Below, in pieces: positions 27,018 to 48,901 of a stretch of 64,000 nt of DNA. The DNA is taken from NCBI GenBank assembly GCA_964534625.1, contig CAZHRF010000006.1:1-64000 (forward strand), given 5' to 3'. The translations under genes and the position numbers were made by a program. Below the pieces are notes generated by a model. The model was not told where the DNA came from. It searched no databases and was given only the letters and a program-made list of their open reading frames with translations. Every line of letters starts with the position of its first letter. Position 1 is the stretch's first letter. The stretch comes from an uncultured archaeon (GTDB lineage Archaea > Asgardarchaeota > Heimdallarchaeia > Heimdallarchaeales > Heimdallarchaeaceae).

Positions 27018-27201
27018 TTTTTGTCATCCTATAAAATTGTAAGTAATATGTTTTCTTTACTTCTTAAGAACAAAGGATAAGGAGATTTCTAAAACTTTTG
27101 CTTTACGCCAGATTCGGTAAGCTATTACTAGATGGAATGATTATATTTAACTTGTAGACTTGGTTTGGATACGTTTTTATACGGTAAAAACTTCTTTTTT
27201 C

Positions 27202-27960
27202 ATGGTAAGAATGGGAAAAGGAAAAGAGGAAGAGAAAAAAAAAGAAAAAAATCTTTCAGCTGATGCATTTAAAGGATCACTAAGCACGGCTTACAATTCA
27301 TTTAGTAACGAGATTATTGAAACTGAAAAAAGAGATAAAGCCACTAAAAAGAGAGTTTTAAGAGAAGGAATTACAAAAATTGAGAAAGATTCAAGAAAAG
27401 AATTGGATACATCTCGAATTATAGTGAATAAATTAGTAGAAATGAAGAAGAAAGCGGGATTATCCCCAACATTAGGTACATCGGGTGAGGTCAAGTCTCC
27501 AAAACTATTTGGAAAGCAAAATTTCAAGGACTTATTAATCAAAGAAATCTTATATATGGGAAATGAAGAATTAGCGGGTAAGGGGATATATGCAATAAGT
27601 TCTAAAAATTTCATTGATTACTTTAGAAATACAAGAGAAAATTGGAAAGTAGATGACACAGAGATATTAGATACAATAATAGAATTGGAAGTAACAGAAG
27701 TTATACCTAAAACAGTAGAGATTACGGATGATGAATTTTTGATAAGATTTAAACCAATAGAATTATCTGGTGATATACAAGATATTCTACGAATGGCTAC
27801 AGGAAGAAAAGCTTTATCCATAGAAGATATACATGACTTTATGGGATGGGATAGAAAAAGAGCACAGACTGCAATGAATCTAATGGTAGAAAAAAATCTA
27901 GCCATACATGATGAAGAGACAAAGAATTATTATTTTCCATCAATAAGTGTTGTAGAATAA
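27202..27960 (+). CDS. EAP30-family (Vps22/Vps36-like) ESCRT-II winged-helix protein
   Basis: C-terminal PIELSGDIQDILRMA...LSIEDIHDFMGWDRKRAQTAMNLMVEKNLAIHD...YYFP matches the Vps22/Snf8 pattern PxELxxD...LxWxxxRA...L...G.A..D....YW.P. Start probably ATG 27202 or 27211. Confidence 0.75.
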   Translation: MVRMGKGKEEEKKKEKNLSADAFKGSLSTAYNSFSNEIIETEKRDKATKKRVLREGITKIEKDSRKELDTSRIIVNKLVEMKKKAGLSPTLGTSGEVKSPKLFGKQNFKDLLIKEILYMGNEELAGKGIYAISSKNFIDYFRNTRENWKVDDTEILDTIIELEVTEVIPKTVEITDDEFLIRFKPIELSGDIQDILRMATGRKALSIEDIHDFMGWDRKRAQTAMNLMVEKNLAIHDEETKNYYFPSISVVE

Positions 27961-28004
27961 AAAATTTAGATAAAAGAAGAGTTTAAACGACAATTTACAA
28001 AGAA

Positions 28005-28012
28005 TTTATATA
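28005..28012 (+). promoter_or_regulatory. Candidate archaeal TATA box with purine-rich BRE
   Basis: CAAAGAA-TTTATATA; no downstream protein gene, but a hairpin starts 23 nt after the box. Confidence 0.45.
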
Positions 28013-28034
28013 TGTCCCATGAGAATCATTATAT

Positions 28035-28084
28035 GGTGTGAGAACCCTTTTTACTCTCACACCCTCCCTCCCTCCCTCCCTTTT
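28035..28084 (+). ncRNA. Candidate small RNA: 9-bp hairpin, (CCCU)5 tract and U tract
   Basis: GGTGTGAGA (28035-28043) pairs with TCTCACACC (28055-28063); CCCT x5; TTTT at 28081-28084; TATA box at promoter distance. Confidence 0.3.
28062..28081. repeat. (CCCT)5 microsatellite; (AGGG)5 on minus strand, G-quadruplex-competent
   Basis: Direct reading of ccctccctccctccctccct. Confidence 0.9.
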
Positions 28085-28086
28085 AT

Positions 28087-28479
28087 GTGAACGTCTTCTT
28101 GAAAACCCCGTCCTTGAGGGCGAGGATGAAACGAAGAAAAAACAATACACGTTTTAGCATACAAACATTTTGTAAGTATGCTGTCTTTGTGTACGTGTCT
28201 TGGTACCATCTCGAAAACCAAGAGTGGTACGAAACAAAAAGAAAAAGATGGAAGTAGAAGATAGGGCTACACATTAAACAACGATAATGGGTATATGTAT
28301 CGACCTAAGTAAGAGTATTGAGGACTTCCGATGTAGAGTCGGTACGTTGTGTGTACTAGAACCATGTACCGTCGGGACGACGGGAACTATAGACGACACT
28401 TGTGGAGAAGAGGTAAGCCCTCATTTTGAGGGCACTTCGTTGAAGCAAGAAACGCCATCCTTTAGGGTGGGGTAGTTCA
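28087..28479 (+). mobile_element. Non-autonomous IS200/IS605 (tnpB-type) derivative, PATE-like, with omega-RNA-like 3' end
   Basis: Follows TTTAT (28082-28086); left hairpin CCCCGTCC-TTGA-GGGCGAGG (28106-28125); related right hairpin CCATCC-TTTA-GGGTGG (28455-28470) then GGTAGTTCA. The 3' part translates as the typical TnpB tail TVGTTG...CGE...SLKQETPSFRVG. No TnpA or RuvC ORF. Confidence 0.8.
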
Positions 28480-28570
28480 TAATAAGCTAATTAAAGGCGA
28501 ATAGATTGAAGATATTAGCTCAACGATACAGATTGAAGTAGATGATAAAAAAAGTAGGTTGCAATATGTC

Positions 28571-29410
28571 TTAAAACATATTTCTATGCCAATGTTTTTT
28601 CTTTGAGTCTTTTTTATCTTGATTCATCTCATGTAAAATCTTTACTGCCAAATTAGCAGCTTTTATCGCTTCTTTTTCTCCTTTAGTTGCAAATTCATTT
28701 TTATGTCTATTAGCATATACTGCACATATTGCCCCCGCCCTGAATCCATATATCTGTGCCAAACTAAATATGTGGGAAGCCTCCATTTCAAAATTGAGTA
28801 CTCCCATTTTTTGTAAATCGGGAACGATTTTTTCTGTCCAACTAACTTTATAATCTTTAAAACCAGGTCTTCCTTGCCCCAGATAAAAACTTGATGAAGA
28901 AGCTGTAATCCCTAGATGGTAAACATACCCTAATTCTTCACAGGCTTCTATTAATGCTAATACGACTTCATAATGTGCAATAGCCGGAAAAGTTTCTTTC
29001 ACGTACCATCTGCTTGATCCCTCCATTTTCATCGCACCTGTACTGATAATCAAATCACCAAGTTCAATTTCAGGTTGGATAGCACCAGTTGAACCAACTC
29101 GAAGAAAAGTGTTACAACCAATATTGGCTAACTCAGTTAGAGCAATCTCACACGCAGGAGTACCAATACCAGTAGATGTGACGCTTATATCTGTACCATG
29201 AACATTACCAGTATACGAGTAATATTGTCTATGTTCAGCGATTTTTTTATAAGTATCCCATGTTTTTGCAATTCTCAACGCACGTTCAGGATCACCAGGC
29301 ATTAGAACAGGTCCTTTCAAATCACCAACTTTTGCCTCAATGTGATACTGTTTTCCCTCTTCAAAAACAGGTTTATCAGCTGAAATTTTTCGCTTGCTCT
29401 CTTTATTCAT
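28571..29410 (-). CDS. udp: Uridine phosphorylase
   Basis: QYHI, LMPGDPER, STGIG, RVGSTGA, FYLGQGR, NFEME, YANR. Confidence 0.92.
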   Translation of the reverse strand: MNKESKRKISADKPVFEEGKQYHIEAKVGDLKGPVLMPGDPERALRIAKTWDTYKKIAEHRQYYSYTGNVHGTDISVTSTGIGTPACEIALTELANIGCNTFLRVGSTGAIQPEIELGDLIISTGAMKMEGSSRWYVKETFPAIAHYEVVLALIEACEELGYVYHLGITASSSSFYLGQGRPGFKDYKVSWTEKIVPDLQKMGVLNFEMEASHIFSLAQIYGFRAGAICAVYANRHKNEFATKGEKEAIKAANLAVKILHEMNQDKKDSKKKHWHRNMF

Positions 29411-48771: not shown

Positions 48772-48901
48772 ATTCTTTTTCATTATTTCTTTTTATTTTG
48801 TATCTTTTTTATCTTATTTTGAATAAACAAGTTTACTTTGGAGTAGGTGAATCTATCACCAGCGAGGTTTTATTCATTTTTTAATTACTTAAGAATTGAT
48901 T

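Follow-up and report, generated by a model that had tools for sequence, protein, structure and literature searches.

Insertion sequences of the IS605 type that were reduced by deletion of their core are known as PATEs in Haloquadratum walsbyi, where some of them retain part of the C-terminal region of tnpB, the 52-bp forms consist of termini only, and most tnpA and tnpB genes are pseudogenes (Dyall-Smith 2011, PMC3119063). It was reported for Geobacillus stearothermophilus that PATEs often encode omega-RNAs, which need TnpB in trans (Meers 2023, 10.1101/2023.03.14.532601), and thus the idea of a gene-less guide cassette has already been published. The RAGATH-18 motif was described as the core of the guide RNAs (reRNA) of IS607 TnpB (PMC11061315).

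Here we characterize an element of 394 nt that occupies positions 28087-28480 (+ strand, as are all element features below) of the window, that is, of the whole stretch of 64,000 nt analysed in this study. With a probability of roughly 0.85, this non-autonomous IS200/IS605-type element (a PATE, or MITE) is an internally deleted, protein-free derivative of a tnpB insertion sequence; the way in which it would work is outlined below. Its likeness to PATEs is extensive. Terminal inverted repeats are absent, hairpins lie near the termini, a short target oligonucleotide is found on the 5' side, and the target is not duplicated; the element is too short for a transposase and derives from tnpB (IS1341-type) elements by core deletion; the C-terminal part of tnpB is kept, terminal-only forms of about 50 bp coexist with it, and tnpB pseudogenes are present in the host. 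It differs from the described PATEs in its host, an Asgard-type archaeon from a microbial mat, in the retention of an additional mid-tnpB scrap, in a new junction segment that is palindromic, and in that most copies join left and right ends of different tnpB subfamilies.

The second close system is that of ISDra2 and IS608. In common with these, the RNA scaffold lies across both the 3' end of tnpB and the right end of the element, the predicted TAM coincides with the transposon target and is a T-rich pentamer, the ends are spaced at 19 nt and 10 nt and follow a target/guide tetranucleotide rule, and the TnpB proteins of the relatives are closest to that of ISDra2. In contrast to them, the 394-nt element itself has neither tnpA nor tnpB, its TAM is TTTAT rather than the TTGAT of ISDra2, and the core of its scaffold resembles a shortened RAGATH-18 motif.

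The 394-nt family is a well-documented example of elements that have already been described, and not a new system. It adds a clean, well-bounded, guide-RNA-bearing and nuclease-less IS200/IS605 derivative to those known and leaves the current understanding unchanged. The host lineage, of the Asgard type, is a group of interest for the TnpB-to-Fanzor story. The series at hand comprises tnpA+tnpB elements of sister genera, decaying tnpB-only elements, RNA-keeping 394-nt copies, and 47-bp terminal-only forms, and it is a natural one for testing both the use of gene-less omega-RNAs in trans and the end parts needed by TnpA.

Boundaries, Copies, and Target Site of the Element

A search of the host genome (G000; 3.37 Mb, 120 contigs denoted here by C-numbers, 89.8% complete) revealed 11 full-length and two 5'-truncated copies with 77-94% identity to the window copy. 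The bounds of the element were taken from the alignment of these 13 copies with their flanks. Homology begins directly 3' of TTTAT (or TTTAC) and ends at TTCAT, and the flanks on both sides are unrelated, which already speaks against an origin of the copies by segmental duplication. The copies end with TTCAT in 12 cases and with TTCAC in one; at the window locus the 3' terminus is GGTAGTTCAT, with the right-end cleavage motif TTCAT at 28476-28480, 10 nt past the hairpin foot. Given these ends, the element spans 28087-28480 and the flank begins at 28481. The target site and predicted TAM, TTTAT, lies immediately 5' of the element (28082-28086), and the same pentamer precedes 23 of the 26 left ends in the genome, the remaining three being preceded by TTTAC. 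The right flanks are mutually unrelated and contain no repeat of the target, indicating insertion without target duplication. Terminal inverted repeats are absent; imperfect hairpins are located near both ends, on the same strand.

The first-pass annotation had proposed a protein-free IS200/IS605-type element with TTTAT as target and TAM, and had suggested a search of the genome for further copies. The element and its target are borne out, and the element is clearly multi-copy. The proposed end GGTAGTTCA is indeed present, but the right boundary had been placed one base short of the true end at 28480. In line with the established mechanism of TnpB, the 3' flank is retained as the predicted RNA guide segment, whose start moves from 28480 to 28481, so that the guide would be 28481-28500 instead of 28480-28499; this segment is outside the mobile DNA.

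The GC content of the element (28087-28480) is 38-47% versus 27-33% around it. In four metagenome runs, the depth summed over contigs is higher over the element than over its flanks by a factor of 10-45. Among public runs, no RNA run was listed with the locus; it is present in four DNA runs of one microbial-mat metagenome study and, with a small share, in two DNA runs of a second study, on microbialites. The ORFs that overlap the element are all short (41-63 aa), and a Pfam scan of the two on the + strand (56 and 62 aa) gave no match. Among 40 relatives searched at the DNA level, no full 394-nt copy was found, the right-end 40-110 nt alone being in common.

Terminal Hairpins

The left-end tip of 19 nt (28087-28105) closes with AAAA (28102-28105) at the foot of an imperfect hairpin (28106-28125) with 8-bp arms and a TTGA loop, in which 28106-28113 pairs with 28118-28125. 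In the alignment of copies, 92% of the cells of this hairpin are paired, and compensatory changes occur at two pairs. The imperfect hairpin of the right end (28455-28470; 28455-28460 pairs with 28465-28470) would serve both as the TnpA site in DNA and as the last stem of the RNA; across the family it occurs in several arm variants with compensatory changes. Both hairpins follow the design CC.TCC/GGG.GG, each with a T.G pair, in agreement with the initial suggestion that the two ends match.

The four nucleotides at the foot of the left hairpin change with the target. They are AAAA in most TTTAT-flanked copies (AAGA in one, on C15) and AAAG in three of the four TTTAC-flanked elements, including that of the sister-genus genome G001, with one exception. 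We take this correspondence of AAAA with TTAT and AAAG with TTAC to be the target/guide rule of the IS608 type. The spacing of the ends, with 19 nt between the cleavage point and the left hairpin and 10 nt between the right hairpin and its cleavage point, follows the IS608 geometry as well.

The hairpins also reveal the mosaic nature of the family. The window copy alone has a right hairpin of the C30/C7 type (28452-28480), matching its own left hairpin, and the other 12 copies have a left end of the C30 type joined to a right hairpin of the C16/C4 type. Therefore the 394-nt family is a chimera of two tnpB subfamilies, and a further recombination appears to have given rise to the window copy. 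The combination of a C30-type left with a C16-type right hairpin, seen in most copies, might impair recognition by a single TnpA.

Six still shorter elements, of 47 bp, consist of termini only (G000 C2:42301-42356, C2:61231-61294, C7:31516-31568, C8:66085-66124, C21:32670-32721, and C25:11805-11862), and a damaged seventh is located at C42:15418-15454. Their layout is TTTAT, a 19-nt left tip, a single hairpin whose 5' arm is that of the left end and whose 3' arm is that of the right end, and a right tip ending with TTCAT; the RNA scaffold is absent. As with the 52-bp PATEs of Haloquadratum, this layout fits a deletion between the end hairpins, which are similar to each other. Since these forms have multiplied too, the RNA module is dispensable for spread.

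Relatives and Candidate Partner Proteins

Positions 2-85 of the element are 96-98% identical to the left ends of two tnpB-bearing elements of 1.1-1.4 kb in the same genome (C30:32981 and C7:61031), and its last 57-120 nt match the right ends of elements on C30, C7, C16, C4, and C64. The ORFs of these long elements carry HTH_OrfB_IS605, OrfB_IS605, and Cas12f1-like TNB domains and thus encode TnpB. All four assembled cognate tnpB elements are broken, each at a different place, by a frameshift (C30), an early stop (C16), a deletion (C7), or a 5' truncation (C4). In addition, long elements are represented at contig ends by about 12 fragments, of which at least seven are left ends and about five are right ends; because they are cut by the contig edges, an intact tnpB or tnpA may be unassembled. 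A search of G000 for the Y1 transposase (PF01797) gave no match, which does not prove the absence of tnpA in an assembly of 120 contigs that is 89.8% complete.

In three genomes of sister genera (G001, G005, and G002), a tnpA of the Y1_Tnp family (PF01797) is located directly upstream of tnpB. The tnpB genes of these elements are 58-60% identical to that of the family of the 394-nt element; the frame is open and intact, with 427-429 aa, in G001 and G005, and is cut by a contig end in G002. In G001 both genes lie on the minus strand of locus L058 (contig C8 of that genome), tnpB at 937-2208 and tnpA at 2192-2614. Among solved structures, the encoded proteins are closest to ISDra2 TnpB (E 8e-62). 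The right-end scaffold is homologous in the autonomous elements of G001 and G005, both of which end with TTCAA, and the right end in G001 is nearly base-for-base equal to the scaffold in the window. Moreover, the left hairpin of the tnpA+tnpB element of G001 is homologous, with compensated arms. Thus the proposal to look for tnpB and tnpA genes with the same ends was rewarded in part: tnpB-bearing kin are present in the host genome, but all the assembled ones are broken and no tnpA was found in that assembly, and complete tnpA+tnpB pairs occur in the sister genera.

The only intact TnpB in the assembly (C42:7112-8386, 425 aa) belongs to a different family. As a partner in trans it was rejected, being too distant (22-27% identity) and having an unrelated 3' end. 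A 149-aa fragment of a TnpB of this type lies at C19:46918-47364, about 0.8 kb from another 394-nt copy.

The Right-End RNA Scaffold

We aligned 20 right ends, of which ten are from gene-less elements, six are adjacent to tnpB remnants, three belong to tnpA+tnpB elements, and one comes from another family. In their consensus, a 6-bp stem is followed by a three-tier core stem and then by the terminal hairpin, and double compensatory changes are observed in eight of the 26 consensus pairs. In the 6-bp stem-loop (28369-28383), such changes affect two pair positions, with CG replaced by UA in seven and by AU in four of the 20 sequences. They fall, as read by eye, on synonymous codon positions in the tnpB-bearing relatives, as one would predict for an RNA stem that lies within coding sequence. 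The core stem (28399-28451), which includes the hairpin 28417-28433, is conserved in the 20 homologues, and both its outer and inner parts show compensatory changes across them.

A covariance model built from the same 20 right ends identified about 25 strong scaffolds in the genome (E below 1e-7), 13 of them in the gene-less family and the others beside tnpB remnants. The window copy scores 132.9 bits, and all 13 gene-less copies are intact, with 119-145 bits. These results identify the right ~120 nt as a genuine scaffold of a TnpB right-end (omega) RNA, and the earlier suggestion of an omega-RNA-like right end is confirmed by the match to the covarying scaffold of tnpB-linked elements.

The core resembles a described RNA family, since Rfam RF03064 (RAGATH-18) matches 28399-28451 at E 0.019, although its 25.8 bits fall short of the gathering score (44.9 bits); no RAGATH-18 match was found in eight related loci at E up to 0.1. 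The right end in G025 (L032:1525-1621) gives a match, also below the threshold (32.9 vs 37 bits), to the Helicobacter sRNA HPnc0580 over the first stem. Both likenesses are a resemblance and not membership. They hint that the Rfam families RAGATH-18 and HPnc0580 may be TnpB right-end RNAs with a shared core. RAGATH-18 has been reported only with IS607 TnpB, and here a RAGATH-18-like core is found where the relatives have a Y1 TnpA.

The match to RAGATH-18 is what one would expect if the element were of the IS607 type, moved by a serine recombinase and encoding a RAGATH-18 reRNA. The conserved bases of the outer stem and of the internal loops are indeed common to both RNAs. However, apart from the score below the threshold, the inner stem is shorter here and the RNA overlaps coding sequence, the scaffold being embedded in the tnpB reading frame, and the two systems differ in the type of transposase, the TAM, and the clade of TnpB. 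The TAM is the AT-rich TTTAT and not AGGAG or GAGGG, the relatives have a Y1 TnpA and no serine recombinase, their TnpB is much nearer to ISDra2, with E 8e-62 against E 7e-31 for the 384-aa chain 8iaz, and the hairpin geometry of the ends is IS608-like. The IS607 reading is already contradicted by these observations and is hardly credible. At the same time, the shared ends, the hairpin geometry, and the relatives with Y1 tnpA provide good support for membership in IS200/IS605.

Origin of the Interior and Its Stems

The interior of the element contains the following pieces. The first, 28126-28171, is the rest of the left end common to tnpB-bearing elements, with a TATA-like box at 28152-28161, and is presumably the promoter region of tnpB. 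It is followed by a junction segment of 28 nt (28172-28199) that has no counterpart in the long elements, with no local alignment to the tnpB elements being found. The third piece, 28200-28284, is a remnant of mid-tnpB, around codons 160-190, with 70% identity over 85 nt to the tnpB of C16 and 96% identity over 28 nt to those of C30 and C16. Finally, 28299-28454 is what is left of the 3' end of tnpB (its last ~55 codons, beginning at the third RuvC motif and closing with the stop); it overlaps the RNA scaffold and has a tblastn match to the C-terminal piece of the C16 TnpB (aa 189-241, 57% identity, E 5e-10). The opinion that the interior is not recognisable as tnpB is therefore overturned by the mid-gene and C-terminal pieces. 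The first-pass annotation had named a single copy, an interior aligning with degraded tnpB, and lack of a cognate TnpB as observations that would speak against it; the second is indeed observed and the assembled cognate tnpB genes are broken, but the element is not single-copy.

The tail remnant is in frame with the 62-aa ORF (28287-28475), and this frame is open in most copies, as might be expected of a small-protein gene. Nevertheless, what the ORF contains is an in-frame tail of tnpB with most of the RuvC domain missing and no Pfam match, and in one copy it has a 1-nt deletion, which makes a gene at this place barely tenable.

All the stems noted initially do exist at their places: 28148-28197 enclosing 28156-28182, 28198-28223, the nested stems within 28268-28355, 28369-28383, and 28417-28433. 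(A pattern search with the 28156-28182 hairpin matched two unrelated contigs, by chance.) The dense base-pairing is real too, as the + strand folds with -123.7 kcal/mol (z = -4.9 against shuffles); the - strand has z = -3.6. These features, together with the complementarity of the 28-nt junction to both of its neighbours and with the high conservation of the mid-tnpB remnant (92% mean pairwise identity, more than any other part of the copies), are those that would favour a free-standing mobile structured ncRNA of about 390 nt, whose 5' domain is under RNA-level selection as a ribozyme, an intron, or an extended scaffold. Still, several lines of evidence argue against it, and we regard it as very improbable. 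The search of the whole window against Rfam gave no match at the gathering score, and group I introns or IStrons, group II introns, and HEARO (the IscB RNA) were rejected, with no match at E up to 10 in 27900-28650. Palindromic DNA should fold well on either strand, and here the minus strand does so too. The 28172-28199 segment resembles (as read by eye) 28147-28162 in inverted orientation; it provides the 3' arms for the stems 28148-28197 and 28156-28182 and begins the 5' arm of the stem 28198-28223. The 5' arm of the latter is missing from the long elements; thus the left-interior stems were created at deletion junctions, and the stem 28198-28223 is a by-product of such a junction. The 5' arm of the stem 28156-28182 is the TATA-like box of the shared left end, and this box would be expected to lie upstream of any transcript from that promoter.

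The pattern of substitutions leads to the same conclusion. According to helix counts over the 13 copies, compensatory changes are found mainly in the 28369-28383 stem and in the hairpins of both ends. Helices of the left interior are either invariant or vary by breakage, with one double change at most, among copies too similar for a strong test of covariation in the 5' part; in the 8-bp helix 28297-28304/28338-28345, the pair 28302/28340 is mismatched in eight of the 13 copies. The RNA-level selection that had been suggested for the structured 5' region is not supported: the region is made of tnpB remnants and the 28-nt junction, and its helices lack real covariation.

Proposed Mobility and Use in Trans

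Returning to the derivation from an IS200/IS605 tnpB element, its workings may be outlined as follows. The deletion derivative has kept both single-strand ends required by a Y1 (HUH) TnpA, the promoter-like left end of tnpB, two scraps of the tnpB frame, and the complete ~120-nt omega-RNA scaffold. It would spread by peel-and-paste transposition 3' of TTTAT, with TnpA supplied in trans. Transcription through the right end would yield an omega-RNA whose guide is the flank from 28481, and with this guide and the TAM TTTAT a cognate TnpB from elsewhere might cut the locus's own empty site, after which the copy would be restored by recombination.

Given that the cognate tnpB genes are broken and no tnpA was found, the copies may be recent fossils rather than active cassettes, and present-day activity as a guide cassette acting in trans, although plausible, is unproven and, for the genome as assembled, doubtful. 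Accounting for the same deletion derivative, one may suppose that its RNA module is a leftover of recent descent that is never used, that it is not expressed as a guide, and that the element is immobile in this lineage. We give this account a sizeable chance, if somewhat short of even. In line with it, conservation is spread evenly over functional and non-functional parts: the mean pairwise identity of the scaffold is 76-90%, compared to 90-92% for the tnpB scraps, and since the scaffold is conserved no better than the scraps, there is no sign of selection on individual copies. The lack of covariation in the left-interior stems and the multiplication of the scaffold-less 47-bp forms are also in its favour. 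On the other hand, the fragments of long elements at contig ends leave room for an intact tnpB or tnpA outside the assembly, the 87-94% identity of copies implies fairly recent bursts, and the covariance model finds the scaffold intact in each of the 13 copies.

At the opposite extreme, the 13 copies could be a working dispersed set of guide RNAs, each transcribed from its retained tnpB promoter region and all serviced by one TnpB in trans, with RNA-guided homing maintaining the gene-less elements; this seems unlikely to us. If it were true, the single servicing TnpB would be either unassembled or only periodically acquired, and the mid-tnpB remnant with the palindromic junction would act as a 5' domain of the RNA or as a processing signal.

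Insertion Site and Flanking Sequences

The element lies between two convergent genes, encoding an EAP30/Vps36-family (ESCRT-II-like) protein (27160-27960, + strand) and a purine/uridine phosphorylase (PNP; 28571-29410, - strand). The ESCRT-II-like gene and a TFB-like frame found elsewhere in the genome are indicative of an Asgard-type archaeon. The EAP30/PNP pair is syntenic in five genomes of three related genera, with spacers of 187-248 nt that lack the element. In the window the spacer is 610 nt, that is, 216 nt plus the 394-nt element, and this length fits, by comparison with the relatives, an insertion. The exact empty-site pattern (left and right flanks joined) had 0 matches in metagenome contigs, and no junction skipping the element was seen in contigs of the four mat metagenome runs. 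The joined flanks of 12 elements also revealed no paralogous empty site in the genome. Second-site targets of the flanking guides, sought with 16-mers and up to two mismatches, gave chance-level matches only, without TTTAT.

Upstream of the element, the region 28005-28081 contains a TATA-like box (28005-28012), a hairpin (28035-28063), and a (CCCT)4-5 run (28062-28081), and this arrangement is kept in the EAP30/PNP spacer of five relatives (L071, L072, L073, L075, and L077). The region, which matches no Rfam family, is a candidate small RNA gene, and the 394-nt element is located directly after its T-run.

On the other side, the right flank 28481-28564 shares 84% identity over 81 nt with the 5' portion of a small-GTPase-like gene (C32:20563-20643); the homology begins at the right-end junction, and none is found in the left flank. 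Likewise, the copy on C24 (right flank C24:44000-44075) abuts a fragment of a DUF433-like gene with a paralogue at C14:46278-46350. These gene fragments at two right ends may result either from adjacent deletion or from co-moved flanks, which are indistinguishable; as a side possibility, the fragments might suggest that the elements occasionally carry 3' flanking DNA along. As a general rule, flank transduction is not supported, as just two of the 25 right flanks have paralogues elsewhere, compared with three of the 26 left flanks that match other repeats. One further dispersed repeat, of ~70-100 nt with 74-89% identity, occurs at 48772-48871 of the window, at C9:76456-76615 and C39:8791-8961, and in more than 20 other places, and it forms the left flank of two left-end copies (C7:31521 and C60:11726).
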